A stretch of DNA of 64,000 nucleotides from a bacterium (GCA_021849125.1 JAJZTG010000004.1:1025-65024); one strand, 5' to 3'; shown: positions 22,650 through 39,829, counted from the stretch's first letter. Made by a program: numbers and translations. Notes: generated by a model not told the origin, from the letters alone.

Positions 22650-22737
22650 GTGCTCTCTAGTATAGCCTCCCTAGCGGCGCTCTCCGGAATAGCAAACGAG
22701 AACGGCGCCCTTTCGGGCGCCGTTCTCGTCGTGGCCG

Positions 22738-22947: not shown

Positions 22948-23070
22948 TATGAATAATGAGTTTTGCCTAAGATATCAATGCAGTGGGCTGGAGAAGAGGC
23001 TCGAACCGGACTCCGCTGGTTCAGCGCTGGTTGATAGGTATACGATACCGCAGAAAATAACTCTAGTCAA

Positions 23071-23403: not shown

Positions 23404-23500
23404 AGCTTACGTGCTCAATTTCCCCGTATTTGCTAGAGTTCGATTCTTGCCCCCATTTTTTACTTTGTTCGTTGTAGTTCGATTCCGATTCCCTTCTATT

Positions 23501-24109
23501 TCATTTCTGACTGAGAGTTTTTTCTATCGCCGCAATCCCCTGCTTGATCTGTTCGTGGAGGTCATCTCTTGATGTATCAAAGGTATACACAAATGGAAGA
23601 TCAGGAAGCTTGAACTGATCTTTATGAAAATTGAAACGCTCTATAGCGTGCTCGGCATCCTTAAAGAGCCAAGTGTGCGGATAATTCTTAAGTTTGTTGA
23701 TGATGAACTCGACAGGAGGGTTGATGTGAATGAATAACTGTCGCACGTTTGGAAAAAGTTTCTTTGTTTTTTCATTGTAAGCGAGCCCGCGTGGACTTCC
23801 AGTGTTTGCATCCACGGCAACACTATACCCAAAATCGAGATATTTCTCAGTGAGTTCCTGTGATATTTCTCTGGCACCTTCATACGAATACCCTGCCGAC
23901 TTAAATCTCTTACGAATCTCGTCCGTTGAAATACGAATGAGGCCAAAATGCTCTGCAAGAGGTCTCGTTACTGTCGTCTTTCCTGATCCGACAAGTCCAA
24001 CAGGCATAAGCATCCATTGAGCAGATGGCTTCATGTCCGGAATGTTGAGTGTCGTCTCGTATTCGCATTTGATTTCGTCAAGAACTTCTTTTGGAGCATC
24101 TGGAAACAT
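23501..24109 (-). CDS. P-loop nucleotide/nucleoside-kinase-like ATPase (AAA_33/zeta-toxin-like fold)
   Basis: Walker A GLVGSGKTT; 202 aa; low-GC; immediately downstream (minus sense) of repeat copy A. Confidence 0.6.
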   Translation of the reverse strand: MFPDAPKEVLDEIKCEYETTLNIPDMKPSAQWMLMPVGLVGSGKTTVTRPLAEHFGLIRISTDEIRKRFKSAGYSYEGAREISQELTEKYLDFGYSVAVDANTGSPRGLAYNEKTKKLFPNVRQLFIHINPPVEFIINKLKNYPHTWLFKDAEHAIERFNFHKDQFKLPDLPFVYTFDTSRDDLHEQIKQGIAAIEKTLSQK

Positions 24110-24145
24110 ATATCAAAACCAGTATAACTCTACCTATCGTCTGGT

Positions 24146-24561
24146 AAAAGCCGCCCATTAGGGCGGCTTTTACGTACGTGATGCACCACAAGGGCACTTC
24201 TTGTTTTCTAACTCGCTTCGCTCCTAAGAAAACAATGTCGCCTGGCGGTACTGTACTGATCCCAATGGGGGACGGTACTAGTTCCCCCTCCTTCGTCGGG
24301 ACAGGCTGGCGTCACAATGCGTGCCCCTCGTCGATGACTTCTCGTGACTGCGCAAAACAACAAAGCGCCTACATGGGCGCTTTGTTGTTTTGCTTGTTGC
24401 CCGTGTCGGTACGGTACCCGCCACCGCAAGCAATCCAAAGGTTCTTTGGCGACTCTTCTTCCCTCTTTAGCAATGGGGGCCGGTATGGGTCGACTTTGAG
24501 ATGATTAAAGGATTTTTGGCGAGTTTTGAGTGGCGAACAGGAGGATCGGTACCGTACTAAG
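24146..24561. repeat. Island repeat family, copy A (longest; with internal 19-bp perfect hairpin)
   Basis: Hairpin ccgccc-atta-gggcgg + TTTT, then cgtacgtgatg...cctggcggtacTgtactgatcccaaTgggggAcggtac...; extra gggggccggta modules; hairpin gcaaaacaacaaagcgcc/ggcgctttgttgttttgc. Confidence 0.6.
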
Positions 24562-24567
24562 ATTAAG

Positions 24568-25524
24568 TCACGAATTATCCTTCTCACTTTGAGCCATCTG
24601 GGTGTACCACGCGCGCTCAAACGAGGAACGAACTTCTTCTTGGAGTCTTGCTCTTTCATCTTGATTATTAGAACTGAAATATTGTTCAACAAGAGCATCT
24701 ACTTTTTCTCGCTCGGTGGAATCATGTAATACCCCGAGACACGCGAGAACCCTAAGTGATCCTTTTCCAAAAGTGGCTTCAATGTCCTTAAGAGCGAATA
24801 GATTCTCGGCAAACTGACCGCGCTCGAAACTATCCATCACTTCTCCTACAGAAATCCCTTTCGTCATCGCGACTCCTCTGACAATTTTAGAAAACACATT
24901 ATTGTACTGCGCGTACCCATACGAAAACTCCTCGATATCTTTTTTAGCGATACCGAGCTCCTCTTCGAGCTCATCTTTAGTGGCCTCTAGAATCCTGACG
25001 GCCATATACTCTGTCACGATTTCATTAAAACCAGTAAGAGCCGCGCGACCTTCTGGTTCCTTCCATGGGGATGCAAGCTGATAGCCAATCCGCGCAGGAA
25101 CCATTCCATGCTCCTCACTCCCGAAGAATCGGTGCTTTGATGCGCGATGAACCATTTCGTGAACCAGTGTATCTAACAGATCGGCTCCGCCATGATGTTT
25201 GTCCTTGTTTACGAAAATCGCATCGTCAAATGCAGAGGTGGAGCCATGATCGGCACTATTCCCAAGTCTTTTTTCATACGCTTCTGCTGAAAGTAGGTGG
25301 ATCTTTTCAGGAGATATCGGCGTGTACGGGATACCGAGGTCGGCAAGACGACGCTGTAGCAGGTCATTTGCTTTTTCAATATATGCACGATTTTCTTCGG
25401 TTTTCTCCTCTTCCCCTTCGACATGCATAGCAGATTCTTCTGCCCATTTCCCCAAGGATTTCTCAGCTTGAGCCAACTCTTCCTCGTCGTAGGCTCTACC
25501 GATGAATTTCGGTCCTTTCTCCAT
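24568..25524 (-). CDS. Putative zinc metallopeptidase (HExxH) of unknown family
   Basis: LVHEMVHRASKH motif; 318 aa; low-GC. Confidence 0.5.
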   Translation of the reverse strand: MEKGPKFIGRAYDEEELAQAEKSLGKWAEESAMHVEGEEEKTEENRAYIEKANDLLQRRLADLGIPYTPISPEKIHLLSAEAYEKRLGNSADHGSTSAFDDAIFVNKDKHHGGADLLDTLVHEMVHRASKHRFFGSEEHGMVPARIGYQLASPWKEPEGRAALTGFNEIVTEYMAVRILEATKDELEEELGIAKKDIEEFSYGYAQYNNVFSKIVRGVAMTKGISVGEVMDSFERGQFAENLFALKDIEATFGKGSLRVLACLGVLHDSTEREKVDALVEQYFSSNNQDERARLQEEVRSSFERAWYTQMAQSEKDNS

Positions 25525-25555
25525 ATAGGTGAAGTATAGCTTGATTTCGCAAACG

Positions 25556-25700
25556 CAAAAGCCGCTCTCTCGAGCGGCTTTTGCGTACGTGATGCCTGGC
25601 GGTACGGTACTGATCCCAACGGGGGCCGGTAAAGGTCGGTTTTGAGATGGTTGGGAGATGTTCAGCGAGTTTTGATGGGCGAATAGGCAGGGCGATGACG
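25556..25700. repeat. Island repeat family, copy B
   Basis: gcaaaagccgctc-tctc-gagcggcttttgc hairpin + gcgtacgtgatgcctggcggtacggtactgatcccaacgggggccggta... Confidence 0.6.
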
Positions 25701-25874
25701 TGCGCGCCCGGCGGGTGATGTCGCCGATACAAGCGAAACTCAGTATCTACATCAGTGCCGCAACGAATAATATTGAAACCCGGCCTGTGCCGGGTTTCAA
25801 TCTGGACTTACATCACCTTGCTAACCTTGACGCGTTCTAACCCTTGGGGAAGGTTCGTTGCCTGCCCGAAGATA

Positions 25875-27410
25875 TCAGGGATGGGCCTGTACGTATGCGC
25901 GAGTTACGGACCCGAAGTACCCTGCGGCCGGAACTATGCCTACCGCCTTTTGCAGCTTAATGAGAGCTGCTTGAGTTGCCGACCCGAAAGAGGTAGTCTC
26001 ATGCTCGGCAGACCCCGGACCATCGACTGCAACAGTGAAGCCGTGTGCATTGAGGTAGCGTTGGAGTTCTTGCACATCGACTCCGGTGGAGCCCTTCCGC
26101 AAGTCCCTTTGGAAAACGGGGATTGTGTTTGCAGGGGGAGATACCGGCTGGTGCTGTAGTATGGCGCGCACATTATCGATAACCGCCTGATCGACCTTAA
26201 ATGAGGCGAGGACGTTAATGAGTGCCGCGATTTGACCCTCTGACAGTCCTGCAGGAGCTGGTGCGGATGCGACAGGAGTAGCCGTCTCGGTTACCGAGGG
26301 AGAAGAGGTGGCGGAGATGGTTTGCTCAGAGGAAGACGCTATCGTTCCCGTGGTGTCGGAAGTAGTCGCAGTCGTTTCCATTGTGCTCCAATAGCCGCCA
26401 CCGGATGCCGGACTAAAAACGCCAGACGTAGCGACGGTAGATATGTTCCCAACCGTGTCGCACCCTACGGCTTTAAACGATGCCGTGGAGGAAACAGTGA
26501 TGCTTGAGTACGTAGGGCTTGAACAGGTGGGTGTCGAACCGTCAGACGTGAAGCGAATGGAGGAGGCACCAGTCGAGGTAATGGTAATGGTCTGCGAGCC
26601 ATGGAACACAATCCCGTCGGGGGAAAAGATCGGCGTAAGAGGGGCAAGATTGTCCGTAATCGTTCGAGTACTGCCGGTCGCGGCAATACCCACGGAATCC
26701 TTGACTGCGGAGGTCGGATTAATCGTATCGCCGCTCGCAACCGTCATATCCGAGCCAAGCGTGATAGTAAGGACGGTGCCCGCAGTATTCCATGATATGG
26801 CGAGGCCATTTGCGGTGGTGCCAAACGTATGACTACCCGACAACGAGAGGTTCGTATTGAGGTTTGAGGTCGTGAGCGTCGATGTGGCCAACGTCTCGCT
26901 GAAAGTAAGCGCGAGTGTGTCAGTCCCTGAGATATTCGTGGATCCATCGACATCGGACCACGAAACTGAATTGAGCGTCGGTCCGGTTACGTCATAGGTC
27001 ACATTGGGACCGGTTAAGCTAGACTGAGAGATCGTAGTCGTGGCCGTACCAACCGTATCGCCCCATGAAACTTGGAACGAAACCGCTCCCTCGGTCCAGG
27101 TGCTACTGGTTGTCGTGGCATAGTACCAATTGGTTCCACTGCCAGAAAAGGACGTGGAACCCATAGCGAAGATATTGATCTTAGGCGCTTGCCAAGGGGT
27201 GGCATCGAGCGTCAGCTGATAGTTGACGCCGTCTCCCGTTGTGGCTCGCGATGTCGTAGCGAAGCCGGTATTTACATAGACAGGCGTCGAAGTCGAAGTA
27301 ATTGACGTAAGACTGACCGCGGCAGCGGATACAAAGTGCGGTGCCACACCCAACGACAACCCTACCAGGAGGGCAAGACCAATCGGAATTCTAAGAATGT
27401 AGTTCTTCAT
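25875..27410 (-). CDS. Secreted Thr/Ser-rich surface protein with C-terminal peptidoglycan-binding (PG_binding_1-like) domain
   Basis: Signal peptide MKNYILRIPIGLALLVGLSLGVAPHFVSAAA; beta-rich T/S repeats incl. FTSDGSTPTCSSPTYSS (chitobiase-C-like); C-terminal GVDVQELQRYLNAHGF...GYFGSVTRAYV. Confidence 0.6.
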   Translation of the reverse strand: MKNYILRIPIGLALLVGLSLGVAPHFVSAAAVSLTSITSTSTPVYVNTGFATTSRATTGDGVNYQLTLDATPWQAPKINIFAMGSTSFSGSGTNWYYATTTSSTWTEGAVSFQVSWGDTVGTATTTISQSSLTGPNVTYDVTGPTLNSVSWSDVDGSTNISGTDTLALTFSETLATSTLTTSNLNTNLSLSGSHTFGTTANGLAISWNTAGTVLTITLGSDMTVASGDTINPTSAVKDSVGIAATGSTRTITDNLAPLTPIFSPDGIVFHGSQTITITSTGASSIRFTSDGSTPTCSSPTYSSITVSSTASFKAVGCDTVGNISTVATSGVFSPASGGGYWSTMETTATTSDTTGTIASSSEQTISATSSPSVTETATPVASAPAPAGLSEGQIAALINVLASFKVDQAVIDNVRAILQHQPVSPPANTIPVFQRDLRKGSTGVDVQELQRYLNAHGFTVAVDGPGSAEHETTSFGSATQAALIKLQKAVGIVPAAGYFGSVTRAYVQAHP

Positions 27411-27458
27411 TGCTGTACAATAGCACAGGCTATTTGTGCATGAGCGGCTTGTCCCCAA

Positions 27459-27716
27459 GCGCCCCTTCGGGCGGCTTTTGCGTACGTGACGCCTGGCGGT
27501 ACGGTACTGATCCCAACGGGGGCCGGTACTGGTTGCCTCACGTCACAATCGTGTTGCCCGTGTCGGTACCGTACTGGTCCCCATAGGGAGTTACAAGGTT
27601 TTTCAAGCACCTTCCTTCCCCCTTAGTCGACGGGGGCCGGTATGGGTCAGTTTTCAATGGTTTGCAGGGTTTTCGCTCAGCTTTGAGCGTCGAACAAGGG
27701 GGCCGGTACCGAACCA
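27459..27716. repeat. Island repeat family, copy C (three gggggccggta modules)
   Basis: gccccttcgggcggcttttgcgtacgtgacgcctggcggtacggtactgatcccaacgggggccggtac... plus downstream modules shared with copy A. Confidence 0.6.
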
Positions 27717-27891
27717 AACGGGATAAACGGGATACCCCCTACGATCCGGTTGTGGATTTTATTTCTAGGAAACCTGCTAGCATTGAAATTGACCGATCTA
27801 GGGCAATTGCCGCATCGAGCCACGGCTCACACATAGGCACCGGATTCCTGCAGGTCATTGGATCTCCTTTACTCGATCTAATGATGTAGGT

Positions 27892-29268
27892 ATGCAAACG
27901 CAAGATATTGCGATCAGCTACGTGCCGATCGCGAGCCTCACTCCCGCGCCTTATAACCCCCGCACCTGGACGGCGGAGGCGCTCGAGCAGCTCAAAGAAA
28001 GCCTGCGGCGATTCGGATTCGTCGATCCGGTCGTCGCCAACAAAGCGCCGGGCCGCGAGAACTTGGTGCTCGGCGGGCACATGCGGATCGTCGCGGCAAT
28101 GGAACTCGGCATCGAAAGCGTGCCCGTGGTGTACGTGAATATTCCGGACGAGCAGAAAGAGCGCGAACTCAATCTTCGCCTCAACAAGAACCAGGGCGAG
28201 TTCGATCTCGCGCTCTTGGCAGAATTCGACGAGTCGTTCCTCGAGGAGGTCGGCTTCTCGAGCGAAGAGCTCGATGCGATCTTCGAAGAGGAGAAGGAAG
28301 AAGAACTCTTCGATCTCGAGAAGGAGCTCGAGCGGATCGGAATCGAGGAAGTGAAGGTGCAGAAGGGCGACGTGTACGACCTGGACGGCTCGCGCCTCAT
28401 GTGCGGCGATTCGACGATCGAAGCCGATATGCTCAGACTCATGGGCGATCAGAAAGCGGACATGGTGATGACCGATCCCCCGTACATTCTTGATTACCTC
28501 CACGGCAAGGGGCGGCACGGTTCAGCAACGACCGGCTTCGGCGCGAAACGTAACCGGCGGTATCTCGAGACGGAAAGCCTGCCGGAAAACTTCACCGAAC
28601 TCTGGATGAACGCCGTCGCCAAAGTCCAAGCACCGGATTTCGCCATCATCGTGTACGAGAATTGGAAAAACATCCGGACGATATGGGACGAGATGGCGAA
28701 GCGCTGGAAGGTGCGGAACATGCTGGTGTGGCACCTCCCCAACCGGAACCAGGGCTACGCGGGCAAGCACAAGTTCTTCTCGAAGTACGATATCGCGATG
28801 GTCGGCACGAGCGACGCGGAACGCGAAGCCGACATGGGCGACGAGGACGAGCTCGTGCAGAACGAATACGAGACGGCGCTCTTCGCGATCTCGGGCAGGC
28901 CGCAGTGGGAGTCGTACGAGAAAGGCAAGAAATACTGCCCGACGGATTTCATCGACTTCAACGCGGCCGACGAAAAGTCCTCGGGACAGGCGATCATCTT
29001 CGGCACGAAGCCGGTCGAGATCCTGATTCCGTACATAAAGGTGCTCACCAAGCGCGGCCAGATCGTGCTTGAGCCATTCGGCGGGAGCGGGTCGACGCTC
29101 ATCGCCTCGAACACGATCGGACGCCGCTGCTACATCATGGAAAAATCCACGGTGTACGCGGAAGTCATCCTTAATCGCTGGACCAAATTCTCGGGCAAGA
29201 CGCCCACCAAACTCTATGCGGCAAATAGCGTCGGAGAAGTTGGCCCTGATTCTGGAGCTCAAGTCTAA
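27892..29268 (+). CDS. ParB-like nuclease domain fused to beta-class N6-adenine/N4-cytosine DNA methyltransferase
   Basis: N-terminal ParB/Srx motif (LVLGGHMRIVAAMELG); motif IV TDPPY followed by C-terminal motif I EPFGGSGST (beta-class order); high-GC segment inside the island. Confidence 0.85.
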   Translation: MQTQDIAISYVPIASLTPAPYNPRTWTAEALEQLKESLRRFGFVDPVVANKAPGRENLVLGGHMRIVAAMELGIESVPVVYVNIPDEQKERELNLRLNKNQGEFDLALLAEFDESFLEEVGFSSEELDAIFEEEKEEELFDLEKELERIGIEEVKVQKGDVYDLDGSRLMCGDSTIEADMLRLMGDQKADMVMTDPPYILDYLHGKGRHGSATTGFGAKRNRRYLETESLPENFTELWMNAVAKVQAPDFAIIVYENWKNIRTIWDEMAKRWKVRNMLVWHLPNRNQGYAGKHKFFSKYDIAMVGTSDAEREADMGDEDELVQNEYETALFAISGRPQWESYEKGKKYCPTDFIDFNAADEKSSGQAIIFGTKPVEILIPYIKVLTKRGQIVLEPFGGSGSTLIASNTIGRRCYIMEKSTVYAEVILNRWTKFSGKTPTKLYAANSVGEVGPDSGAQV

Positions 29269-29815
29269 CCCGATCGTGCTCGCCGCGTGCCGGAAACTCG
29301 GCATACCGACGAGCACGTATTACCGGTGGCGGGATCAGGACACGCGGTTCAGGAAAGAGGCGGACCGTTCGATCAGGAACGGCCGGAGGATGGTCAGCGA
29401 CATGGCCGAAGTTCATGTGCTTAAGGGCGTGAAGCATGGCGACAAGACTTATGTCATGTGGTGGCTCAAGACGTTCTCTCCCGCCTACAAGAAACAGGAG
29501 AAATCGGTAATCGAGATCCGGCAGAAAGACGCAGTGCCCAAGGCAAAGCCCGAAAAGCCGTCGAAGTGGCTGCAGCCGACTGTCCCCATGACCACTGACG
29601 AAGATCTTGAAAAAGCCGATCCGAAACTGGCCAAGCATCTGGAGAGAGCGGTCCGAGGAATCTTCAGGCGGAGCAAGCGTGAGGAAGCTCTCGAGCGCGC
29701 GCTTCGGAAAGCCAATGTGTCTCAGCAGGAGATTGATGCGCTCTTGCAGCAGGTCGACGAGGAGGAAAAGAAGAACGAAGAGCTGAACGAGATGTTCAGG
29801 AAGAAGAAATCCTGA
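29216..29815 (+). CDS. HTH DNA-binding protein (terminase-small-subunit/transposase-like HTH), start uncertain
   Basis: LGIPTSTYYRWRDQ helix-turn-helix; Lys/Glu-rich C-terminus; ORF extends upstream into the MTase in another frame. Confidence 0.45.
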   Translation: MRQIASEKLALILELKSNPIVLAACRKLGIPTSTYYRWRDQDTRFRKEADRSIRNGRRMVSDMAEVHVLKGVKHGDKTYVMWWLKTFSPAYKKQEKSVIEIRQKDAVPKAKPEKPSKWLQPTVPMTTDEDLEKADPKLAKHLERAVRGIFRRSKREEALERALRKANVSQQEIDALLQQVDEEEKKNEELNEMFRKKKS

Positions 29816-29822
29816 AGATTGC

Positions 29823-30278
29823 CTAAGCGCCGTCCCGGAGCTCGTCGAGCTTCTTCTTGATCTCGTACGGACGCTCGATGTGCGCGAACACGATTTCCTC
29901 TCCCCTGCTACCGGCAGTATTGATCCCGAGCGAGCCGGTCTTGTATATCCAGCTGTCGAGGATCGGCTCCACGACGGTGACGTCCGTTATCTTGGAGTAC
30001 TCGGTGGTGGTCAGGTTGGTCGAGAGGAAACCGCGATGGCATAGGACGCGACGGTCGGTGAATGCGAACGCATTCGCCGCCTTCGCGTATACGCCGTAGT
30101 ACCAGACGGCGATGCCGATTGCGATCAGGCCCCACATCCACGAAAGGAAGAAAACGAACACGCCGAAGAATATGCCGAGTCCCATGCAGACGTACCTGTA
30201 GCGATCGCCGACCGAGAATTCGTACTTCACTTCTTCGTCCTTGTTGAGGACCTTGTCCCAAATATGCTGATGCTTCAT
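29823..30278 (-). CDS. Bacterial PH-domain (bPH_2/YdbS-like) membrane protein
   Basis: Two TM helices followed by AFTDRRV... PH-like domain; start chosen at MKHQHIW. Confidence 0.55.
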   Translation of the reverse strand: MKHQHIWDKVLNKDEEVKYEFSVGDRYRYVCMGLGIFFGVFVFFLSWMWGLIAIGIAVWYYGVYAKAANAFAFTDRRVLCHRGFLSTNLTTTEYSKITDVTVVEPILDSWIYKTGSLGINTAGSRGEEIVFAHIERPYEIKKKLDELRDGA

Positions 30279-30537
30279 AGGATTACGCGAGTTGGTAATT
30301 CCTGAGAAGCGGGTACACAAAACCCGCCACCAGGAGCCCTTGCGGGCCTATAGGAGTTTCCCCCTATAACGCATCGAACGCCCTGATGACGGGTTTTCTA
30401 GGTTCGATGCGATTTGTGACCATGCCAGCGGCCGGAGCCATTAGTTTAGGTCGTTACTAGCACAGGGCTAGTACTTAAAGAGTAGCTTAGATAAACGGGT
30501 TTGCGAAGAGGTCCACCAACAGCTAGCAAACAGAGAG

Positions 30538-31506: not shown

Positions 31507-33004
31507 CCACGGCCAGCTGGTAGAGATGCTTCCAAATCACGTACATCGCGAATGTGTCGCGTCCGCAATATATCCTTAGATCTGATGCGATTTGCCTACG
31601 TTCTTCTTCAGGAGCCGTGGGGGATATCATTGACCACCAGGCATCGGAAGCCTGACCGCCTTCATGGATGTTAAGATCTCCGTAATTAAGGTCAGGCGCA
31701 AGCGCGGGAAGCACCTTCTTGATAGAAGTTTTACCTCGAAATTCAGGGTGGACGTAATACTGCTTATGGAATACGTCCTTCAGGTCGTACATCTGTTCAT
31801 TGATCCTTTCCAGAGCCGCCTTGTGATCTGGCAAGCGTGCAGCCATCTCTCTGTTCACACCCTGCTCGAAACTTTTGTTCCAAGAAATAATACTACCCTT
31901 TGCACCGATGCTTCGCACCAACAGATCAGCGAGTGGTTTTGATGGGTCAGATGCGATTTCATGCAGATACTCAACATGTTCCGGTTCGACTGAAGGGTCT
32001 CGAAGAATATGGAGAGAGAATTGAAACGGGATACGACTATATGGGCTATAGCCGTTGAACATGGGAATGGCAGGCGCAAAGGTCTCATAATCTAGGAAAT
32101 AAAGCGGAAAGGTCAACTGCTCCAATTCCTCCCGTATCCTATCGACTTCGATAATTGCCGTTTGCGAGCGATGCACTCGTAGCTGATTCACTTGGATTTC
32201 ACTTAGTTCGATATCAGCCGGAACATCGTTAAGATCGAAAAGTCGCCGCTCGACCATTATTGAGAGTTTCTTCTTACTATTTCCGATACGAGCCAGATCA
32301 TGTATGGAGTACTCCGGCACGTCCGGATTTGAGTATTTGAAGGTTGAGCAATGAGAGCTTCTTCCTGAATAGACACAATCACATCCTTCGGAGGGTTCGT
32401 CTGTTCTTGAAAGATATCCCTTTGCCGCGTCCATCTTTTCTTCAATTTCCGACAAACGGGCGGCTATCTTCTCACTCATGTCCTCCACTAGAAACATCTT
32501 GTCGAGCTCCAAATCTCCGGCGCGCACATATTCTTTGTTGAGATGTATGAGGAAGTATTTGCCAACTTCCACCCTAGCCCGCTTTAGGACGGACGCCTGA
32601 AATGCGAGATCGTCTATGTGGCTTCGATCTGACCCCTCTTCCTTGATCGAATTGGTGCCTTTTATCTCGTAGATATCCCATCGCCTGCTCGTCTCGTCAT
32701 AACCGAGAACATCAACCTTCGTGATAAACCCATCAACAACGAAAGTTGCCTGGAAGATGGCCGAAACCCTTGCGAGCACGAGCCTTTCGGTTTCTCTAAC
32801 TGCCTCGTCCTCGGTAGCAGTTACCTGCACACCTCCTGGGAAAAGATTGCGCGCGTATGTCTCCACTTCGTTTCCCTGCTCGACTAATTGCAACTCGAAT
32901 GGCGAGAGCGAGAACATGTCGAGCAACTCCGGCTTGTGCCGTTTAAGCCAGATATTTTTCGGACACATTAGAAACTCGAGAAAGGTAGTTTTGGAGATCA
33001 TCAT
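31499..33004 (-). CDS. DUF2779-like protein (predicted PD-(D/E)xK-type nuclease N-domain plus RNase-H-like C-domain)
   Basis: N-terminus ISKTTFLEFLMCPKNIWLKRHKPE resembles the DUF2779 signature; C-terminal RIYCGRDTFAMYVIWK. Confidence 0.55.
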   Translation of the reverse strand: MMISKTTFLEFLMCPKNIWLKRHKPELLDMFSLSPFELQLVEQGNEVETYARNLFPGGVQVTATEDEAVRETERLVLARVSAIFQATFVVDGFITKVDVLGYDETSRRWDIYEIKGTNSIKEEGSDRSHIDDLAFQASVLKRARVEVGKYFLIHLNKEYVRAGDLELDKMFLVEDMSEKIAARLSEIEEKMDAAKGYLSRTDEPSEGCDCVYSGRSSHCSTFKYSNPDVPEYSIHDLARIGNSKKKLSIMVERRLFDLNDVPADIELSEIQVNQLRVHRSQTAIIEVDRIREELEQLTFPLYFLDYETFAPAIPMFNGYSPYSRIPFQFSLHILRDPSVEPEHVEYLHEIASDPSKPLADLLVRSIGAKGSIISWNKSFEQGVNREMAARLPDHKAALERINEQMYDLKDVFHKQYYVHPEFRGKTSIKKVLPALAPDLNYGDLNIHEGGQASDAWWSMISPTAPEEERRQIASDLRIYCGRDTFAMYVIWKHLYQLAVGV

Positions 33005-33014
33005 GGAACGATAC

Positions 33015-36000
33015 CTAAATAACGGGTTTTATTCCTAGTTCTTCCAATTTTCCCCACAAACTATCAAGTGCCCCTTCTTTGTGGCGATAGAACGAACTAC
33101 CTGTGATACGCCAAAATTCCCATCCCGCACGACGCAATTGTCGTTCGCGTACTTGATCTTCTTCCCAATTCTCGAGCGTATGATACTGATCTCCGTCACA
33201 CTCCACCGCAAGACGAGCTTCGGCACCCTGCACGACTAAATCGATACGGTAACCAATTACGGGATATTCCGGCAGGACCTGATATCCCTTATCAAGGATG
33301 AGATTCCCAACCTCATATGAGAATTGTGATGCTCGTCCAGAATCGAATTCTTTCTTAAGTGCTTCCCGACCCGCCTTGAGCTCTTCTTTCTTCGGATCGT
33401 AGTACCAATTGAGGAGCTTGAATCGCCAGTCGTTCTGATTTCTGAATTCTTCCAAGGGAATTGAATGGAAAAGGAATACCTGGTCGCGTGCGCGAGTGGC
33501 AGCCACATTGAAGCGCTGCGCTGCCCCCTTGTCAGTGAGAGGGGCGATGGTGTCATTTGGTTTGTTGGGATCGAGAGCTCGGACCATCGATAGGAGCATT
33601 ACGTCGCGTTCATCGCCTTGAAAGGCGTAAGCGTCTCCGCAGATGATTTTTCGCTCTTCGATCACCTTCTCTCCGATCTTGGGATGCTTCAAAATGAGAT
33701 CCTTGATGTATTTTGCTTGGTCCTCAGCAAGCAAGGAGATAACCCCGAATGTGCAGAGATGACCATCTGGCCGCTTCTGATAATTCGGATCTTCAAGAAG
33801 CTCAACGAGTTTATCGACAATCGCCTTCGCCTCGGGCTCGTTTACCTTGTTGTTTGTATTTTGATATCCACCCCCAATTAAGATAGGCACGAGAGCCGGT
33901 TTAAGAAGACCTTTCGGATTAGGATGCCGAAGCGGCTGAAGCTTGTGGTCATAAATATAATGATTACTAAATTCGATAATATCTGGAACACATCTAAAAT
34001 GTTCATTCAGTTGGATCATGTTAGGAATTCTTATCTTCGCCAGGTCAAAGAGGCTCGAAGTTATCGAGAAATTATCCTTATGAGGGATATCGAAGAGGAA
34101 TCGAGAAATGAGTTCAAAGATCTTTTCTTGATCCTGGAAGATTCCCGCCGGGCTGATCTGGTCAGGGTCACCCACGACAAGCAATTTCTTACCAAGATAA
34201 CCGATAGTAAGACCGCGAATATCGCACTGACTTGCCTCATCGAAGATCACGACATCGAACATGCCGGGAATAGGATCTGAGAACATTTGAGCTACGCGGT
34301 GCAAGGGCATGATCCATACAGGGACCGCATTCTTTGCCTCCTTAAGAGACTGCTGCGCCGAATTGAGCCACTTGTTGGCATATTTGCCGGTTCCCTTTCC
34401 GTACTTCTTCATCGCATCGGACCATGCCATCAGAGCATCGCGCTGACGCTTGGTAACCTTGTCGATTTGGCGCTGCCAGGCAAGCACCGTAACAAGCTCA
34501 GAATTCAGTTCGAATTCTTTCTTGGTCAGACGCTCGAGCTGACCCTGGAGATTGTCGATGTCGTCATGATCGTGAATGCTATTGAGCCACGATTCGAGTC
34601 GAGCGACCTTCCAAGCCACGAGCAAATTGTCCGGACATTCAAATTTCTGCTTCTGATCAGCAAGCTCGATGATCTCTCCGCAAAGTTGAGGAACCTGCTT
34701 CTTAAGCAGTTCGCACAATTCATTGATCCTAATGGCCTTCTCTTTCTTTCCTACAAGTAGATCAAGCTTCTCAGTGCAGCTTTTCCAACCGGAAGAATTA
34801 TGCTTCACAATTGCCTGTGCAAGCTCATCAACAATTGCGTGCTGTGTGCGGAAATTCACAGATGATCGAATGGCTTCTTCCCATTCAGTAAATGACTTCT
34901 CGAGGTTCTTTAGCTCGAAAGCAGCCGCGCGTGACGCAGTAAGTTCGATGGCAGTATCAATATCTTCCTTTTTGATAAATGAGAGATCGGAGAGTTCCTT
35001 TACCTCATTGAAGCAAGCGTCGATGGCTGAGAAATCAGAGCGGTAATTCACCAATCTCTGAAGGCCCGCAACGAATACCTCGAGCTTAACCATATCGAGG
35101 CGATCCATGTCGATTTCAAGCGGATTCTTGAGCGTCGACAGACCTTGTTCGAGAAGCGTCTTGATGTCGCGCTCCGCAGACTCAACAAGTATCGAGTTCC
35201 GCAGGATCTCTACCCTCTCCGGACTGTCTGGCTCGACACCATCCACCTTGTACATTTCAAGAATGCGCTTTGCGTTTCCAGGAAGGAGCATTTTACCGAA
35301 TGTTCCCAACTTGCCCTTTGATGCTTTTGCATATAACGCTTCTATCGCTTCACGGAGATCATGAGGTGAGAGATTCGATTGTCCTGAAATGATGTGACCG
35401 ATTGAGCTGTTCTTACCCTTTGCAACAATCTGAATCTTATCTGAAATCTTTGAAAGAATGGTGGACCACTTTTCGCGCTCATTCTGACTAATAGTGCATG
35501 CGTCGAAGATTTCCTGTTCGTAGTCTTTATTGATTGATCCCAAGACCCTCTTTGCCTTGTTGAGCAATTCCCACAGCTGACCCAGTTTCTCTTGATCAAT
35601 CTTTGCCTTACTGAATGCCTCGTCAGAAGATTTAGATTTTGCGCTGAGATCACGATATGAGGCAAAAGCACTGAGCACCACATCTTCATTTGGAAGGGTT
35701 GAAGGATCAGGCAGATCCTCTTTGTAGAGGGTACGATCTACAGCTTCTACTTCTCGAGCGAGATCGTAGAGCTCCTGCAGATCTTCTTCGGTAAATTCAG
35801 GATCAGCATCGAATGGAACCTTATCGGTGAACCACGCAACAGCTTCGTTATCTTTATTCTTATCAACAAACTTTGCAGCATCGATCGGCTTAATTTCTGC
35901 ACCATCAATAACTAACTTCTCTGATGAATCAGTGAGAATGTACTGCCGGATCTTTGATGCAAGAGTGGCTTTCTCTTCACGAACCTTCTTAAGATCTCTT

Positions 36001-37811
36001 CGAACATTCTCCGCTCGAGCATCGCTGAATTTGGTATCTCTTTCACCCAAATTTGAGCTAATTTCCGCGATCGATTGCTGAAGCACGTCATCGCGCTTCG
36101 CGGTCTGCTGCAATTGAGATACTGCAAGGCTTCTGATGTTTTCAGGAAGCTTGTCACGCAAGACCTCCAGGGCTTTACTGGTTTGAGAAGTCACCAACAC
36201 GCTTTTACCTTCTGCAAGGAAGCGTGAGATCAGGTTTGCAATAGTGTGACTCTTTCCGGTGCCCGGTGGACCTTTTACGACAACACCATAATTTGCGTCG
36301 AGTCGTTCCGCGATTCTTTTCTGTTCATCATTCCAAGGCAATGGGAAAAAGAGCTCTGATTCAGGAATAGAGACATTGCCGCCTGCTGCCCTCTCGCCAG
36401 ATCCATCATGGGCACCTATAGGAGCCTCGTCATATTCACCAACGAGGTCAGCAATGAATTCGGTTGCTTCAACACCATATTGTTCGATATCTTTTCGAAT
36501 AGTGGCCGCGTACTTTGACCACATATCGTTTGTTCGCTTGCGTGCGAAGATCACTGGCGCATTCCAGATGCTTGGATTCTTTGAAGCCGTAGGGGCCGAT
36601 ACGATTTCATCGGTGAATTGATCCTCTCCATCCGGTGAGATGTAGTTGATAAGCGTCTGAGCCTGGCCTTTCAGTGTCTCAAGGTGCCAGAAGTCAAAAG
36701 GGTTGGTATTGATGGTATCTCCCCACGTGATGAGATCCATTTCTGCCGGGTTGTCAGTTTCATAGAGCGCTGAAGTCTCTACAAAATTTCTGAACATGGG
36801 ATCAGGATTGATCTCAATTGTTCGCTTTGAGGCATCGAAATCGAGCGTGAGCGGGCTTAAGAAGATCGGAGTGTAGATCGTACCTACACCTTGATGCTGC
36901 CAGGCCAAAACACCGTGACCCAAAAGGAGTTCATAGTTGTCGCCTTCATTCTTGAGAAGCAATCGGAGTGCGTAAAGCTGATCATAAAGAAGGTTTGCCT
37001 TATAGACTTTCTTCACCTGCTCTGCCCAAGGTTTCCAGTCATTCTCGGTATACCCATTGAGAAGCTTCGCGAGCGCCGGATGATCCACCCAATGATCAGG
37101 CTCATATCTCACACTAATGATTTCTGGTAGCTTGTTTGGCAAAATAGTTACCCAATCCTTCAAGCTTTCAGGAATATCATCTCCTTGCTCGTAATTCTTG
37201 CGGAAGTCTCTGAATTCCTTCTCACGATCCTTGTCATCAGCAAATCGGACCTTGCGATCGATCTTTTCTTTAGCAATCGGTGCTTGCAACGGATTCACTT
37301 CGTCAATCCATTCTTCGAGAAGGCTTGGCAACTCCGGTGCTGCTTTGATGTTTTTCTTTTCTACCTTGAGCCAAGAAGTGGACTGTACACCCTCAGGAGT
37401 TTTTTCAGTATCAAAAGGACGGATGGTTAGGTTCTCGAGATCTGTTGGATAGTCAGCAAGCCACCAAGGGGAAGGTGCTGCACTAGTGGTGCGGAAATCT
37501 CTAATAATTGAATCATCAATTGCGAGAGCTTTCTCCAAATATGTAAAGAGTCGGATGACTTTATTTTGTGCTTCTGCAGAAAGATTGGAGACACGCTTCA
37601 CCCGAGACTCTGTAACCTCAATATCCGTGGGGCTTGAGATCTCAACGACAGACTTCTGATTCTTGAGAATTTCGCGTTGCTGCTTCATGGCTTCCGCTTT
37701 GCATTCAGAACACACCGTGCCCTGTTTGACTTTGTGTTTCTTGCAGACAGTGCATAGAGGTTTGGTTGCCCAATATCGCCTTGCATCAAATTTGCTGCGA
37801 TAGGGCGACAT
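33015..37811 (-). CDS. 1598-aa SF1 (Upf1-like, AAA_11/AAA_12) helicase with N-terminal zinc ribbon and DUF4011-like region and C-terminal DUF559/Vsr-like endonuclease domain (Hhe-like)
   Basis: CTVCKKHK...CSECK zinc ribbon; Walker A GPPGTGKSH; motif II VVIFDEASQ; LVVGDPDQISP; motif VI NVAATRARD; C-terminal GYRIDLVVQGAEARLAVECDGDQYH (DUF559/MTES_1575-type). Confidence 0.85.
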   Translation of the reverse strand: MSPYRSKFDARRYWATKPLCTVCKKHKVKQGTVCSECKAEAMKQQREILKNQKSVVEISSPTDIEVTESRVKRVSNLSAEAQNKVIRLFTYLEKALAIDDSIIRDFRTTSAAPSPWWLADYPTDLENLTIRPFDTEKTPEGVQSTSWLKVEKKNIKAAPELPSLLEEWIDEVNPLQAPIAKEKIDRKVRFADDKDREKEFRDFRKNYEQGDDIPESLKDWVTILPNKLPEIISVRYEPDHWVDHPALAKLLNGYTENDWKPWAEQVKKVYKANLLYDQLYALRLLLKNEGDNYELLLGHGVLAWQHQGVGTIYTPIFLSPLTLDFDASKRTIEINPDPMFRNFVETSALYETDNPAEMDLITWGDTINTNPFDFWHLETLKGQAQTLINYISPDGEDQFTDEIVSAPTASKNPSIWNAPVIFARKRTNDMWSKYAATIRKDIEQYGVEATEFIADLVGEYDEAPIGAHDGSGERAAGGNVSIPESELFFPLPWNDEQKRIAERLDANYGVVVKGPPGTGKSHTIANLISRFLAEGKSVLVTSQTSKALEVLRDKLPENIRSLAVSQLQQTAKRDDVLQQSIAEISSNLGERDTKFSDARAENVRRDLKKVREEKATLASKIRQYILTDSSEKLVIDGAEIKPIDAAKFVDKNKDNEAVAWFTDKVPFDADPEFTEEDLQELYDLAREVEAVDRTLYKEDLPDPSTLPNEDVVLSAFASYRDLSAKSKSSDEAFSKAKIDQEKLGQLWELLNKAKRVLGSINKDYEQEIFDACTISQNEREKWSTILSKISDKIQIVAKGKNSSIGHIISGQSNLSPHDLREAIEALYAKASKGKLGTFGKMLLPGNAKRILEMYKVDGVEPDSPERVEILRNSILVESAERDIKTLLEQGLSTLKNPLEIDMDRLDMVKLEVFVAGLQRLVNYRSDFSAIDACFNEVKELSDLSFIKKEDIDTAIELTASRAAAFELKNLEKSFTEWEEAIRSSVNFRTQHAIVDELAQAIVKHNSSGWKSCTEKLDLLVGKKEKAIRINELCELLKKQVPQLCGEIIELADQKQKFECPDNLLVAWKVARLESWLNSIHDHDDIDNLQGQLERLTKKEFELNSELVTVLAWQRQIDKVTKRQRDALMAWSDAMKKYGKGTGKYANKWLNSAQQSLKEAKNAVPVWIMPLHRVAQMFSDPIPGMFDVVIFDEASQCDIRGLTIGYLGKKLLVVGDPDQISPAGIFQDQEKIFELISRFLFDIPHKDNFSITSSLFDLAKIRIPNMIQLNEHFRCVPDIIEFSNHYIYDHKLQPLRHPNPKGLLKPALVPILIGGGYQNTNNKVNEPEAKAIVDKLVELLEDPNYQKRPDGHLCTFGVISLLAEDQAKYIKDLILKHPKIGEKVIEERKIICGDAYAFQGDERDVMLLSMVRALDPNKPNDTIAPLTDKGAAQRFNVAATRARDQVFLFHSIPLEEFRNQNDWRFKLLNWYYDPKKEELKAGREALKKEFDSGRASQFSYEVGNLILDKGYQVLPEYPVIGYRIDLVVQGAEARLAVECDGDQYHTLENWEEDQVRERQLRRAGWEFWRITGSSFYRHKEGALDSLWGKLEELGIKPVI

Positions 37812-37815
37812 ATCA

Positions 37816-38136
37816 TTATTTAACTATATCTTGACCCAAAGGCCCCTCAATAAGCTTGATTGTTTCTTTTACGAACTCCTCCCACGTATACGAACCCTTA
37901 TACCAAAGGAGGACGGCATCCGTTCTATGTTTTAAGAGTTTGAGGAACTTCTGCCAAGTAAAACCATTGGGTTTTAATGCGTCTTTCCACTCCCTCCACA
38001 GATATTGAGGCAGCTTATTCCCGTACCAGACATTTAAGGAATCCCAATTTATTCGGCCTGACTTATCAGTCATACCTTCAATCTTTCGAATCCACTCTTT
38101 TACCTCTATGGGCTCTTTGGGCACTGATAATTTCAT
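37816..38136 (-). CDS. Small hypothetical protein immediately upstream of the helicase gene
   Basis: Longer ORF (to 38451) overlaps the recombinase start on the other strand, so the internal MKLSVPKEP start is preferred; 4-nt gap to the helicase ATG. Confidence 0.4.
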   Translation of the reverse strand: MKLSVPKEPIEVKEWIRKIEGMTDKSGRINWDSLNVWYGNKLPQYLWREWKDALKPNGFTWQKFLKLLKHRTDAVLLWYKGSYTWEEFVKETIKLIEGPLGQDIVK

Positions 38137-38241
38137 ACCCCAAGTATATAGGGCATCAAGGAAATTGCAAAGTCTGCCTAGACTCCCTGCGCGGATTGCG
38201 TCATCCCTTGGGGTGTGCGAATTATCAAGTAAACAACGGAC

Positions 38242-39579
38242 ATGCCAACGGAAATAGGGACAGGAACGGGCGTTTTGGGGGCAAAACCGGCACCCCAGGA
38301 GGCGGTAAGGGTGCGGTACTGCCTCTACGCCAGAAAGAGCACCGAGCAGGACGAAATGCAGGCGCTCTCGATAGATAGCCAGATCAAGGAGATGACCGCG
38401 CTTGCGGCGAGGGACGGACTGGAGGTCGTCGAGGTAAAACGTGAAAGCCACTCGGCCAAAGAGGCCAGCCGGAGGCCGGTATTCAATGAGATGCTGGACG
38501 GGATTCGCACTGGCAGGTTCAACGGGATACTGACATGGGCGGCAGACCGCATCAGCCGCAACGCAGGCGACCTCGGGAGGGTCGTCGACCTGATGGATGC
38601 AGGAGTGTTAGTGCAGATACAGACATACAGTCAGAAGTTCTCGAACAATCCGAACGAGAAATTCCTTCTGATGATTCTCTGTTCGCAGGCGAAGCTCGAG
38701 AACGACAATAAAAGTCTGAACGTGAAGCGCGGTCTGCGGACGCGAGCTGAAATGGGCATGCTCCCCGGCTGGGCACCGGTCGGATACCTGAATGACAACC
38801 GCTCGGATCATAAATGCGAGTACCTCCTGGACCCGGTACGCGCACCAGTCGTGAAAATGATCTTCGAGAAGGTCGGCAAAGAAAAATGGAGCGGCGTGCG
38901 TGTCTATCACTGGCTTAAAGAAGAGGTCGGGTTCAAAACGCGGAGCGGTGTGAATCTGAACTTGAGCACGATTTACACCGTGCTAAAAAATCCATTCTAC
39001 TGCGGCGTATTTGAGTACCCGCGCGGTTCGGGCAACTGGTATGTCGGCAAGCACCCTCCCCTGATATCGAGAGAGCTGTTCGAGATGGTTAGACAGAAAG
39101 TGCTCGAGGAGACGAAGCCGCATGCCAAGACGGATGGCTTCGCGTTTCTCCGCATGATGACATGCGGCGACTGCGGATCGGGCGTAACGGCTATCGAAAA
39201 GGAGAAAATCATCAAAGGCACCGGTGAATCAAAGATCTATAGGTACTACGTTTGCGGCCGTTCGCGCGACCGACGTTGCAAGAATCCGTATGTCCGCGAG
39301 GACGCGCTTGTCGAACAACTCTGCGCCCTTATAGACGAGATTGAAATAGACCGCCTCGGCGCGAGGGCGCTTATCGAAAAGGAGGTTGCCCGGTTCAATA
39401 AGATGCAGTCGAAGGTAATGGGGACAAAGATAGCGGAGAAGGCCCGCGATGTAGATATCAAACGCTATGCAAAGTACCTGCTCGAAGAAGGCACGACCGA
39501 AGAGAAGAGGCAGCTTCTAGAGCAATTGCGCGGCAAGCTTGTACTTTCAAATAAGGAGATCGTCCTAGCGCAAGGCTAA
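38242..39579 (+). CDS. Large serine recombinase (resolvase/invertase catalytic domain + recombinase domain + zinc ribbon)
   Basis: YARKSTEQ catalytic-serine motif, ...GDLGRVVDLMDAGV..., CGDCGSG...YYVCG zinc ribbon; start possibly a few codons downstream. Confidence 0.85.
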   Translation: MPTEIGTGTGVLGAKPAPQEAVRVRYCLYARKSTEQDEMQALSIDSQIKEMTALAARDGLEVVEVKRESHSAKEASRRPVFNEMLDGIRTGRFNGILTWAADRISRNAGDLGRVVDLMDAGVLVQIQTYSQKFSNNPNEKFLLMILCSQAKLENDNKSLNVKRGLRTRAEMGMLPGWAPVGYLNDNRSDHKCEYLLDPVRAPVVKMIFEKVGKEKWSGVRVYHWLKEEVGFKTRSGVNLNLSTIYTVLKNPFYCGVFEYPRGSGNWYVGKHPPLISRELFEMVRQKVLEETKPHAKTDGFAFLRMMTCGDCGSGVTAIEKEKIIKGTGESKIYRYYVCGRSRDRRCKNPYVREDALVEQLCALIDEIEIDRLGARALIEKEVARFNKMQSKVMGTKIAEKARDVDIKRYAKYLLEEGTTEEKRQLLEQLRGKLVLSNKEIVLAQG

Positions 39580-39584
39580 AGCAA

Positions 39585-39684
39585 AAGCCGCGACAAGTCG
39601 TCGCGGCTTTTGCTTACGTGATGCCCGTCGGTACCGTACTGGCCTTTGGGCGGGCCGGTACTGGTTCCTGGCGTCACAACCGTG
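39585..39684. repeat. Island repeat family, copy D = trailer and terminator of the tRNA-fMet-like gene (also terminates the recombinase gene)
   Basis: gccgcgac-aagtc-gtcgcggc hairpin flanked by A/T tracts, then gcttacgtgatgcccgtcggtaccgtactgg...gggcgggccggtactgg... Confidence 0.6.
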
Positions 39685-39755
39685 TTGCGGGGGCCGGAAT
39701 CGAACCGGCGTCTGGAGGTTATGAGCCTCCCGAGGTACCTCTCCTCTACCCCGCT
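39685..39755 (-). tRNA. Initiator-like tRNA-Met (anticodon CAT) with A1:A72 mismatch; 3' end identical to E. coli tRNA-fMet (TCCGGCCCCCGCAAC)
   Basis: Manual fold: AGCGGGG/CCCCGCA acceptor (1:72 unpaired), GAGG/CCTC D-stem, GGAGG-CTCATAA-CCTCC anticodon arm, GCCGG-TTCGATT-CCGGC T-arm, 4-nt variable loop. Confidence 0.6.
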
Positions 39756-39829
39756 ATCCTAAACAGCACGAGACGGCACACCGTCTTGCTATGACACTAA
39801 TATAACGATTTTTGAGCGCTCGTGCAACC

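Follow-up and report, generated by a model that had tools for sequence, protein, structure and literature searches.

What built the compositionally irregular block that lies 3' of an initiator-type tRNA-Met gene in the bacterial sequence GCA_021849125.1 JAJZTG010000004.1:1025-65024? The whole stretch of 64,000 nucleotides (nt), called the window below, was analysed; the block, referred to here as the island, occupies positions 23405-39683 and is anchored at the tRNA gene that follows. An initial annotation, made from the sequence alone, had proposed several successive insertions, or one composite element, at this tRNA. The layering of the island, the repetition of a palindromic site (Y) at its borders and the presence of members of the same large serine recombinase (LSR) element family at the same site in relatives support this proposal. 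We consider it likely that the island is an integration hot spot 3' of the initiator tRNA-Met in an uncultivated Paceibacterota bacterium belonging to the Candidate Phyla Radiation (CPR), built by successive insertions. The host is assigned to the CPR because the relatives anchored on GatA are metagenome-assembled genomes (MAGs) of Candidatus Paceibacterota/Kaiserbacteria.

The island is made of two parts. An LSR element of about 12.1 kb (M1, 27.49-39.68 kb), which is intact and to which the autonomous element is restricted, adjoins the tRNA; beyond it lie three modules of one gene each, without recombinase (M2-M4, 23.4-27.49 kb). The anchor is a tRNA-Met(CAT) gene on the minus strand (39684-39755; ARAGORN; Rfam tRNA, 58.9 bits) with an A1/A72 mismatch and A11:U24, and the other tRNA-Met of the window (5697-5774) has G1:C72 and C11:G24; we take the former to be of initiator and the latter of elongator type. 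The LSR gene (38311-39579, plus strand, 422 amino acids (aa) as annotated in the source record) is convergent with the tRNA, its stop codon being 108 nt from the tRNA 3' end, which bears out the earlier placement of a large serine recombinase directly beside it. Pfam identifies Resolvase (PF00239, 8.5e-21), Recombinase (PF07508, 2.4e-14) and Zn_ribbon_recom (PF13408, 8.3e-08) domains; the resolvase domain, with its serine nucleophile, carries the ARKST motif (YARKSTEQ). The protein matches a PHROG integrase at 1.1e-65, and among solved structures the integrases of SPbeta and A118 come nearest to it. With three domains and this motif the protein looks intact, and recombinase catalysis is predicted; judged by domain content it is a bona fide LSR, orthologous neither to Ccr nor to XisF. 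A perfect 16-bp inverted repeat (39579-39615) forms a bidirectional terminator hairpin common to the LSR gene and the tRNA/Y transcript, and its stem (GCCGCGAC...GTCGCGGC) is also found 3' of the LSR genes in loci L089, L101, L104, L100, L110 and L119 (related loci are designated by L numbers throughout).

The position of the LSR beside a tRNA is not peculiar to the window. More than 8000 LSR homologues with 60-87% identity occur in Paceibacterota-type MAGs, and family statistics were drawn from 82 non-redundant loci with LSR homologues. The association with tRNA genes is strict in orientation and side: 36 tRNAs lie in 157 kb downstream of the LSR and none in 192 kb upstream, the nearest tRNA is convergent with the LSR in 30 of 30 loci, and nine of these tRNAs are 107-136 nt from the LSR stop codon. 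The type of tRNA tracks the LSR clade: LSRs with 62-82% identity lie beside tRNA-iMet and those of the clade near 57% mostly beside tRNA-Ser, with Arg, Glu, Gly and Ile tRNAs also represented. In every clade a 60-70-nt imperfect palindrome of clade-specific sequence is located between the tRNA and the LSR terminator. A blastn-short search for attachment (att) repeats in 33 other LSR loci found almost none, the far ends probably lying past the 10-kb flanks or the repeats being too short.

In the window this palindrome is Y, one of two units repeated at the borders of the modules. Read on the tRNA strand, Y is an imperfect palindrome of 65 nt that starts right after the ...GCAAC of the tRNA and falls into three parts: a conserved stretch of 28 nt (ACGGTTGTGACGCCAGGAACCAGTACCG), a centre of 13 nt that varies, and a right half of 24 nt (xCAGTACxGTACCGxxxGGCATCA). 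A terminator comes after it. The other unit, X, is about 170 nt long on the same strand, begins with GTACGGTACCG, contains CCCATACCGGCCCCC mid-way and ends with GGGTACCGTACCGACACGGGCAAC. The repeated copies of these units are 69-91% alike, confined to the island and all in one orientation (CGGTACNGTACTG: 6 matches against 0.06 expected). The repeats carrying tRNA-3'-end-like motifs that had been reported at the module borders are thus real and island-only, but rather than simply duplicating the tRNA 3' end they consist of a Y site plus X; a direct repeat of the tRNA 3' end was rejected, as no copy in the window matched at least 12 of 14 positions.

Two full copies of Y delimit M1. The first, Y_D (39619-39683, minus strand), abuts the tRNA 3' end and is the candidate attL; its right half bears GTACGGTACCG, the variant found in copies adjoining an LSR gene, and across loci this variant and the terminator stem GCCGCGAC are linked to the LSR gene. 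The second, Y_C (27488-27552, minus strand; terminator 27454-27487), is the candidate attR and is fused to the 3' end of X_C (GGGCAAC joined to ACGA...), the copy of X (27545-27720, minus strand, nhmmer) that forms the tRNA-distal end of the LSR element. Y_C and Y_D match over 38 nt at 89%, and the match extends 5 nt into the tRNA. Further out, both units recur on the minus strand in altered form. At junction B (25586-25695, or 25553-25695 with its terminator) the 5' half of X is joined to the 3' half of Y at TACCGGCCCCC, an arrangement that can be derived, on sequence grounds, from an X-Y junction like that at 27488-27720 via deletion between two 13-nt TACCGGCCCCCGT repeats. Junction A (24146-24562) comprises X_A (24380-24562), a terminator (24352-24393), Y_A with two insertions (24173-24330) and a second terminator (24146-24172). 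Of the modules M2-M4, two end in X and then a copy of Y, and the third in the X/Y hybrid of junction B.

Y is exactly 65 nt long in 15 of 17 distinct copies, with conserved arms, a varying 13-nt centre and arm changes that are uncompensated; this constancy of length and the uncompensated changes point to a protein-bound DNA site rather than an RNA helix. Other identities were considered for both units and rejected. An RNA hairpin does not fit Y, whose centre varies and often cannot pair and whose arm changes lack compensation; X does not behave as a structured RNA (RNAalifold consensus of -6.7 kcal/mol, no gain from covariation); Rfam matches to known RNAs were sub-threshold for either unit and driven by the terminator hairpins; and dispersed repeats resembling miniature inverted-repeat transposable elements or repetitive extragenic palindromes are not in question, X and Y being found only downstream of tRNA-iMet in the window and the loci.

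M1 is built on a backbone that consists of the tRNA-proximal LSR, a ParB-methyltransferase and a helix-turn-helix (HTH) protein at the far end, the LOOT RNA and X. The ParB_N-N6/N4 DNA methyltransferase fusion (27892-29268, plus strand; Pfam ParB_N and N6_N4_Mtase; PHROG 8.8e-81) is 76% identical to its counterpart in L083 and 60-73% identical to those in many loci. The HTH protein (29216-29815, plus strand) has weak Pfam matches to HTH_Tnp_1 and HTH_Tnp_1_2, and PHROG links it weakly (about 3e-4) to small terminase subunits. A ParB-methylase is found upstream of the LSR, and on its strand, in 25 of the 82 loci, with an HTH gene next in most of them, and all four of LSR, ParB-methylase, HTH and LOOT occur in the order and orientation of the window in L083, L082, L115, L087, L099, L102, L133, L134, L152 and L167. 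X is located just beyond the ParB-methylase in L083, L093, L102, L115 and L082. The gap between the ParB-methylase-side genes and the LSR ranges from 0.4 kb up to 8-9 kb, so that cargo sits in slots; the minimal members of the family (L088, L092, L096 and L154) measure about 3.5 kb and contain ParB-methylase, HTH and LSR.

Members of the family with other cargo occupy the same chromosomal site in L082, L083, L115 and L168. In L083, where ParB-methylase, HTH and X are arranged as in the window and the cargo is metal resistance, the element spans 12.7 kb between direct repeats of 45-60 nt made of the tRNA 3' end and the Y left half. The cargo of the L082 element is of the restriction-modification and defence type, and three modules bounded by Y separate this element from the tRNA; L115 has several Y-bounded modules. 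A sister element in L167 is colinear with window positions 30280-39533 (9.3 kb, nucleotide identity 81.6%), and its GC content changes in the same steps; protein identity between the two is 91% for the helicase, 86% for the LSR, 71% for the ParB-methylase and 30% for the HTH protein, a comparison from which we conclude that modules are shuffled between elements.

Comparison with related genomes shows that it is the 3' side of the tRNA that varies. The right flank, i.e. a type IV pilus cluster, LigA, GatC, GatA, a 191-aa gene and the tRNA-Met, is kept in relatives with 72-80% GatA identity, and the sequence 3' of the initiator tRNA was different in every close relative compared (L002-L008, L082 and L083 combine a conserved right flank with different content 3' of the tRNA). 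In L002 the tRNA is followed by a terminator and, from 0.74 kb on, by orthologues of window 16.9-11.9 kb; in L003 an orthologue of window 20.9-21.9 kb begins about 1 kb from the tRNA; L005 has two small genes, X, a terminator and a cold-shock gene, all within 1.8 kb of the tRNA; and L006 has Y, a terminator, three small genes, X and then a displaced CCGGCCCCCGCAAC. The alignment proposed with the initial annotation thus gave the expected picture of a variable region beside a conserved right flank (L002, L003, L005). In the GatA-anchored loci X and Y are found downstream of the initiator tRNA only.

The tRNA genes themselves show further variation. The two tRNA-Met genes are adjacent in the distant relatives L009, L010, L011 and L015; in L010 and L015 genes for the elongator tRNA-Met, tRNA-Asp and tRNA-Thr come immediately after the initiator tRNA, and orthologues of window 0.5-4.7 kb come next. 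In the window an elongator tRNA-Met, a tRNA-Asp and two tRNA-Thr genes lie at 4800-5774, and the two tRNA-Met genes are 34 kb apart. The whole interval between them may have grown by insertion or rearrangement. In L006 (12590-12900) and L083 (13003-13305, minus strand) the anticodon loop of the orthologous initiator tRNA-Met gene is interrupted by a group I intron, about 240 nt long (Rfam Intron_gpI, 72 bits in L083), which L088, L091 and L093 probably share; ARAGORN misses the intron-bearing tRNA genes.

The composition of the island agrees with a layered origin of its content. Its GC content is 0.502 (left flank 0.564, right flank 0.565); 1-kb windows outside it average 0.565 (standard deviation 0.028, minimum 0.496), and the minimum inside is 0.441. 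The low-GC blocks are 23405-24145 (kinase module, 0.426), 24146-25585 (HExxH module, 0.485) and 30461-38240 (cargo operon, 0.465); the host-like ones are 25586-27480 (peptidoglycan-binding (PG-binding) module, 0.551), 27721-29815 (ParB-methylase/HTH, 0.571), 29816-30460 (bPH/LOOT, 0.557) and the LSR segment (0.545). GC at third codon positions (GC3) follows the same division, with 0.42-0.53 for the cargo genes, 0.70-0.80 for ParB-methylase, HTH, bPH and LSR, and 0.74 for GatA. Tetranucleotide L1 distances of 4-kb pieces are 0.22-0.43 in the island, which surpasses almost all controls (mean 0.158, maximum 0.235). The island is therefore a mosaic of foreign-composition cargo and a host-like backbone: composition differs from that of the host for the cargo and not for the element backbone. 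The sharp fall in GC that had been noticed by eye is confirmed, but the figures need slight correction, the dips lying at 43-48% rather than 42-45% on a background of 56-57% rather than about 60%; likewise the second dip exists but sets in near 30.46 kb and not at 29.8 kb. The gene calls made at that stage were all upheld by gene prediction and Pfam searches.

The outer border, as read from the sequence, lies at 23335-23415, where a Y right-end remnant (CACGTAAGC on the minus strand, 23404-23412) accompanies two terminator-like hairpins; the same CACGTAAGC motif stands directly 3' of the tRNA in L005, where Y is absent. We keep the island border at about 23.4 kb because the segment at 18.0-23.4 kb has host-like composition, is free of X and Y copies and contains genes that adjoin the tRNA in L003 and L005; measured against L002, the variable zone may extend back to about 18 kb.

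From these observations the following course of events may be proposed. A circular element would carry an attP region made of X, a Y-like site, the terminator and the LSR gene. The LSR would recombine this circle with Y, the 65-bp imperfect palindrome that starts at the last bases of the tRNA, with a crossover in or near the 13-nt variable centre; the tRNA would remain intact and the element would be left between two copies of Y. Each newcomer would push older material away from the tRNA, giving, from newest to oldest, M1, M2, M3 and M4, in which case M2-M4 would be the residues of earlier arrivals, either decayed elements or recombinase-less riders. Catalysis of these events by the LSR is presumed, and the element may still be mobile.

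Several points weigh against this scheme. The exact junctions and the crossover point are ones that we infer. X and Y are present in L004, L005 and L006 with no LSR within 10 kb and are possibly host features, and no Y follows the tRNA in L002 and L005. Minimal serine-integrase sites need no arm of 170 bp such as X, and attP and attB sites that are alike over a long stretch are uncommon among serine integrases. In L082, L091, L083, L167 and L168 some copies of Y come after pseudo-tRNA 3' halves (with well-formed T-arms in L082, L091 and L083), an arrangement that a crossover within the tRNA gene would explain as well. Finally, the origin of M2-M4 from elements is read from their borders, because their genes had no useful homologues in the fetched loci. 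As a separate observation on the pseudo-tRNAs, L006 14650-14800, L083 330-470, L167 12200-12290 and L168 13370-13450 share a conserved segment, 100-150 nt long, in which a GGAATCGAAC motif resembles an inverted T-arm; the segment sits ahead of the pseudo-tRNA 3' ends that precede some copies of Y.

Other explanations of the locus have to be compared with successive insertion. The source is a contig of a MAG, and the repeats and abrupt GC changes of the island might come from low-GC pieces misjoined at repeats; such a chimera is extremely improbable, since the independent assembly L167 shows LOOT, TerB_N, DUF2779, helicase and LSR in this order with identical GC steps, and this colinearity counts against misassembly. 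L148 and L098 also have this cargo beside an LSR, and an assembly would not collapse at repeats as divergent as these. It is very unlikely, although less so, that the LSR element is what remains of a temperate phage, or else a helper-dependent satellite, whose ParB-methylase and HTH protein start a packaging module. The small-terminase-like match of the HTH protein, the match of the ParB-methylase to a large phage family (PHROG), the listing of one family member (L112/L166) in IMG/VR and the precedent of tycheposons resembling phage-inducible chromosomal islands would fit this idea, but no capsid, portal, large terminase, tail or lysis genes were seen in the window element (where Pfam gave no structural genes) or in the related loci inspected, and the minimal family members are merely about 3.5 kb long. 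Moreover, a scan of 2.9 million viral contigs gave a single relative, IMGVR_UViG_3300025323_000435, which is L112/L166 itself. Three large open reading frames (ORFs; 844-1198 aa) were noticed upstream of the LSR in that locus.

The remaining two possibilities concern the way in which M2-M4 arrived. If only the LSR element were site-specific, the other variability, M2-M4 included, could result from homologous recombination, after DNA uptake, at tRNA, Y, X and terminator anchors, together with local deletions and duplications. X and Y are indeed kept at the locus in genomes without LSR, junction B is accounted for by a deletion between 13-nt repeats, the cold-shock gene 3' fragment at 25.8 kb suggests a local duplication or rearrangement, and a type IV pilus cluster lies next door. 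We nevertheless place this explanation on the unlikely side: copies 69-91% alike are poor substrates for homologous recombination, and one Y per border, a single orientation and the pseudo-tRNA ends in relatives are what tandem site-specific insertion predicts. Alternatively, the modules could be small non-autonomous cassettes (a gene, X and a Y half-site) that the resident LSR moves singly in trans, in an integron-like, tRNA-anchored array. The three consecutive modules of the window are alike in having a Y right half, a terminator, one gene and X or an X fragment, all modules are co-oriented, and short Y-bounded modules of 1-3 genes exist in L082, L115, L091, L006 and L004; serine recombinases able to mobilise recombinase-less neighbours are also known from composite islands of the staphylococcal cassette chromosome (SCC). 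Against this, no identical cassette was found in two contexts among the fetched loci, junctions A and B carry insertions or a deletion and look decayed rather than active, the L082 modules terminate in pseudo-tRNA halves and not in X, and serine integrases do not normally recombine hybrid sites without a directionality factor. An array of this kind is therefore unlikely too, and successive insertion at the tRNA flank is retained as the explanation of the island.

The most regular companion of the LSR elements is LOOT, an RNA known to us only from the OD1, OP11 and TM7 lineages, in keeping with a CPR host. The window's copy (Rfam RF03000; 30335-30452, minus strand) scores 75.7 bits against a gathering threshold of 46.4 and covers model positions 1-121 of 121. 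An Rfam scan found LOOT in six of seven related loci, and a covariance model built from seven copies was used to search 982 kb of LSR loci and 686 kb of CPR controls (45 loci). Besides the window's own copy, this gave 30 matches in 29 of the 82 LSR loci; with that copy counted, 30 of the 82 loci have LOOT, in 31 matches. One more match came from L167; the controls gave a single match, in one locus, inside the X/Y cassette zone of L004. LOOT is on the tRNA strand in 28 of the 30 matches, is present in 21 of the 25 loci with a ParB-methylase, and is located either 0.3-0.5 kb upstream of the ParB-methylase or 0.5-1.3 kb downstream of HTH, often with one small gene after it (bPH in the window). 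Copies are found at L115 4272-4390, L082 5100-5218, L083 3811-3928, L093 2555-2666, L091 7402-7540, L167 2053-2170 and L004 12906-13024. LOOT is thus a regular component of these LSR elements. No published function or genomic context for it was found in the literature searched, and the main text of Weinberg 2017 is silent on it. A bolder combination, in which LOOT is a working part of an undescribed and very widespread family of tRNA-flank LSR elements, for instance one that controls or assists their recombination or maintenance, and the X-Y single-gene modules are cassettes moved in trans, appears distinctly unlikely to us; if true, it would mean that CPR bacteria capture genes much as integrons do, but with a serine recombinase.

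The cargo of M1 is a low-GC, defence-like operon on the minus strand, composed of a small ORF, a helicase-nuclease, a DUF2779/Cas4-like protein and a TerB_N protein. The small ORF (37816-38208, about 106-130 aa, start uncertain) is the first gene of the operon; a 130-aa gene is called at the equivalent place in L167, where the region has 73% protein identity. A 211-aa ORF at 37816-38451 was rejected, being mostly antisense to the LSR 5' end, and only the ORF of about 106-130 aa is real. The helicase-nuclease (33015-37811, 1598 aa, superfamily 1) has AAA_11 and AAA_12 domains and a C-terminal MTES_1575 (DUF559-type nuclease) domain by Pfam, and is 91% identical to its counterpart in L167 and 67% to that in L148, both of which are just upstream of an LSR. 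PADLOC matches it to PDC-S37 (204 bits, residues 497-1591), besides MkoC and Hhe. Its NCBIfam score for ProA is 234 bits, where the cut-off is 1500, and for Hhe it scores 118 bits against 2000; by these scores it appears related to the PDC-S37, ProA, Hhe and Mokosh proteins, is no equivalog of them, and may be called defence-like only. The next two genes encode the DUF2779 protein with a Cas4-like N-terminus (31499-33004; Pfam 1.7e-42; PADLOC Cas4 2.3e-05), which recurs in the LSR loci L098, L133, L139, L124 and L167, and the TerB_N protein (30538-31506; Pfam 1.4e-16), of which a part of the PADLOC SngA model covers the TerB_N region with 54.7 bits; no SngB or SngC match accompanied it, so the operon is not counted as a Shango (SngABC) system. 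The window's cargo recurs beside LSRs in L148, L098, L133, L139, L124 and L163. Directly downstream of LOOT, a membrane protein of the bPH_2 family (29823-30320, minus strand; Pfam 1.4e-09) has a GC3 of 0.79 and homologues in the LSR loci L139, L145 and L155.

The single genes of the outer modules are all on the minus strand. M2 (25875-27458, GC 0.549) encodes a secreted protein with CHB_HEX_C/Fn3_assoc and PG_binding_1 domains (Pfam), M3 (24568-25524, GC 0.467, GC3 0.43) a 318-aa HExxH protein without family match in Pfam, PADLOC, NCBIfam or PHROG, and M4 (23501-24109, GC 0.432) a P-loop kinase (Pfam AAA_33, 2.3e-07). Between the PG-binding gene of M2 and junction B, the segment 25770-25828, 3' of that gene, contains a terminator hairpin and the last ~25 nt of a cold-shock gene, stop codon included, which agree with the csp end at 22735-22760 in 21 of 25 nt; an earlier island border or an imprecise transfer may have left this piece behind. 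Close to the present border, a 78-aa high-GC ORF (23071-23307, minus strand), without family match and without homologue in the fetched loci, lies between the border and the cold-shock leader. The resemblance of 22985-23010 to part of a tRNA was dismissed: this stretch is the cold-shock gene's conserved 5' leader, which L005 has too.

Two regions outside the island also depart from the mean composition. One is a modest GC dip at 9000-12000 (0.50-0.53). The other, at 56251-60830 (0.50-0.52), begins at tRNA-Ser(GCT) (56251-56343) and contains cupredoxin, HMA/DsbD, P-type ATPase and CsoR-like genes, orthologous to the LSR-element cargo of L083 (77% identity for the ATPase); no LSR adjoins them in the window, and the region may be what remains, without recombinase, of an island at a second tRNA.

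These elements matter in the first place for their hosts. CPR bacteria (Patescibacteria) have tiny genomes in which gene gain is poorly understood, and the elements mark a fixed, recognisable point of gene entry at the tRNA 3' flank, on the scale of a family with thousands of recombinase homologues and with defence, restriction-modification and metal-resistance cargo. LOOT is given a testable context, since in this sample it lies within LSR elements near the ParB-methylase and HTH genes, and a serine integrase with a defined 65-bp site could become a genetic tool. No description of these tRNA-flank LSR elements was found in the literature searched, and their closest parallels have to be looked for among systems with other enzymes, targets or hosts.

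The att sites of serine-integrase prophages are imperfect palindromes of 40-65 bp, of which attP and attB share little sequence. Like SPbeta SprA, A118, phiC31 and Bxb1, the window element has a three-domain enzyme whose gene lies at the element end beside att; unlike these full phages with protein-coding or intergenic targets, it uses a tRNA flank, and to our knowledge the well-studied serine integrases do not use such sites. With integrons it shares ordered, co-oriented short modules, a repeated site-like sequence between them and an adjoining recombinase gene; the tyrosine recombinase IntI, the folded single-stranded attC and the common promoter of integrons have no counterpart here, Pfam giving no IntI, Y lacking compensatory pairing and X having no supported fold. 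SCC and SCCmec elements (CcrAB/CcrC) are inserted by LSRs at the 3' end of one housekeeping gene and form tandem arrays that include recombinase-less units. The island resembles them in having recombinase-less units in tandem, separated by direct repeats of the integration site, but it flanks a tRNA and not rlmH, has one recombinase gene and not a pair, and contains longer repeats (65 nt plus X). CcrB is the best NCBIfam match of the LSR, but at 122 bits against a cut-off of 900 it indicates no orthologue, and with a tRNA flank as target the island is not an SCC element.

The island shows the features of a tRNA-associated island, namely a tRNA border with a recombinase, content differing in relatives, an att repeat at the far end and deviating composition. 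Classical tRNA/tmRNA islands (Islander; PMC4383910) likewise have an integrase beside the tRNA, lie 3' of it and deviate in composition, and displaced fragments at the far end, as in such islands, are seen in L083 and L006. The classical islands use tyrosine integrases, of which there is none here; in the window the tRNA 3' end is not duplicated, and the duplicated unit starts at the last 5 nt of the tRNA. In Prochlorococcus, tycheposons and tRNA-linked islands are small cargo-bearing elements at tRNA genes, of which 27 of 937 have a large serine recombinase; most tycheposons have tyrosine recombinases and partial-tRNA flanks, and many have replication genes (bioRxiv 10.1101/2020.12.28.424599). 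As in the scheme proposed here, newcomers in those islands displace older ones, degraded remnants and partial att repeats are scattered, and the cargo is adaptive or defensive (bioRxiv 10.1101/2020.12.28.424599). No tyrosine recombinase, primase/polymerase (Pfam) or partial tRNA was found in the window, and the elements described here differ from tycheposons in their serine recombinase, in a 65-nt palindrome just outside the tRNA, in the ParB-methylase/HTH/LOOT/X backbone and in their CPR hosts. Among all these systems, tycheposon islands and SCC composite islands appear closest in behaviour. As a tRNA-linked island the locus is ordinary in kind; what distinguishes it is the class of its enzyme, the tRNA-flank site, the LOOT-containing backbone, the size of the family and the CPR host.

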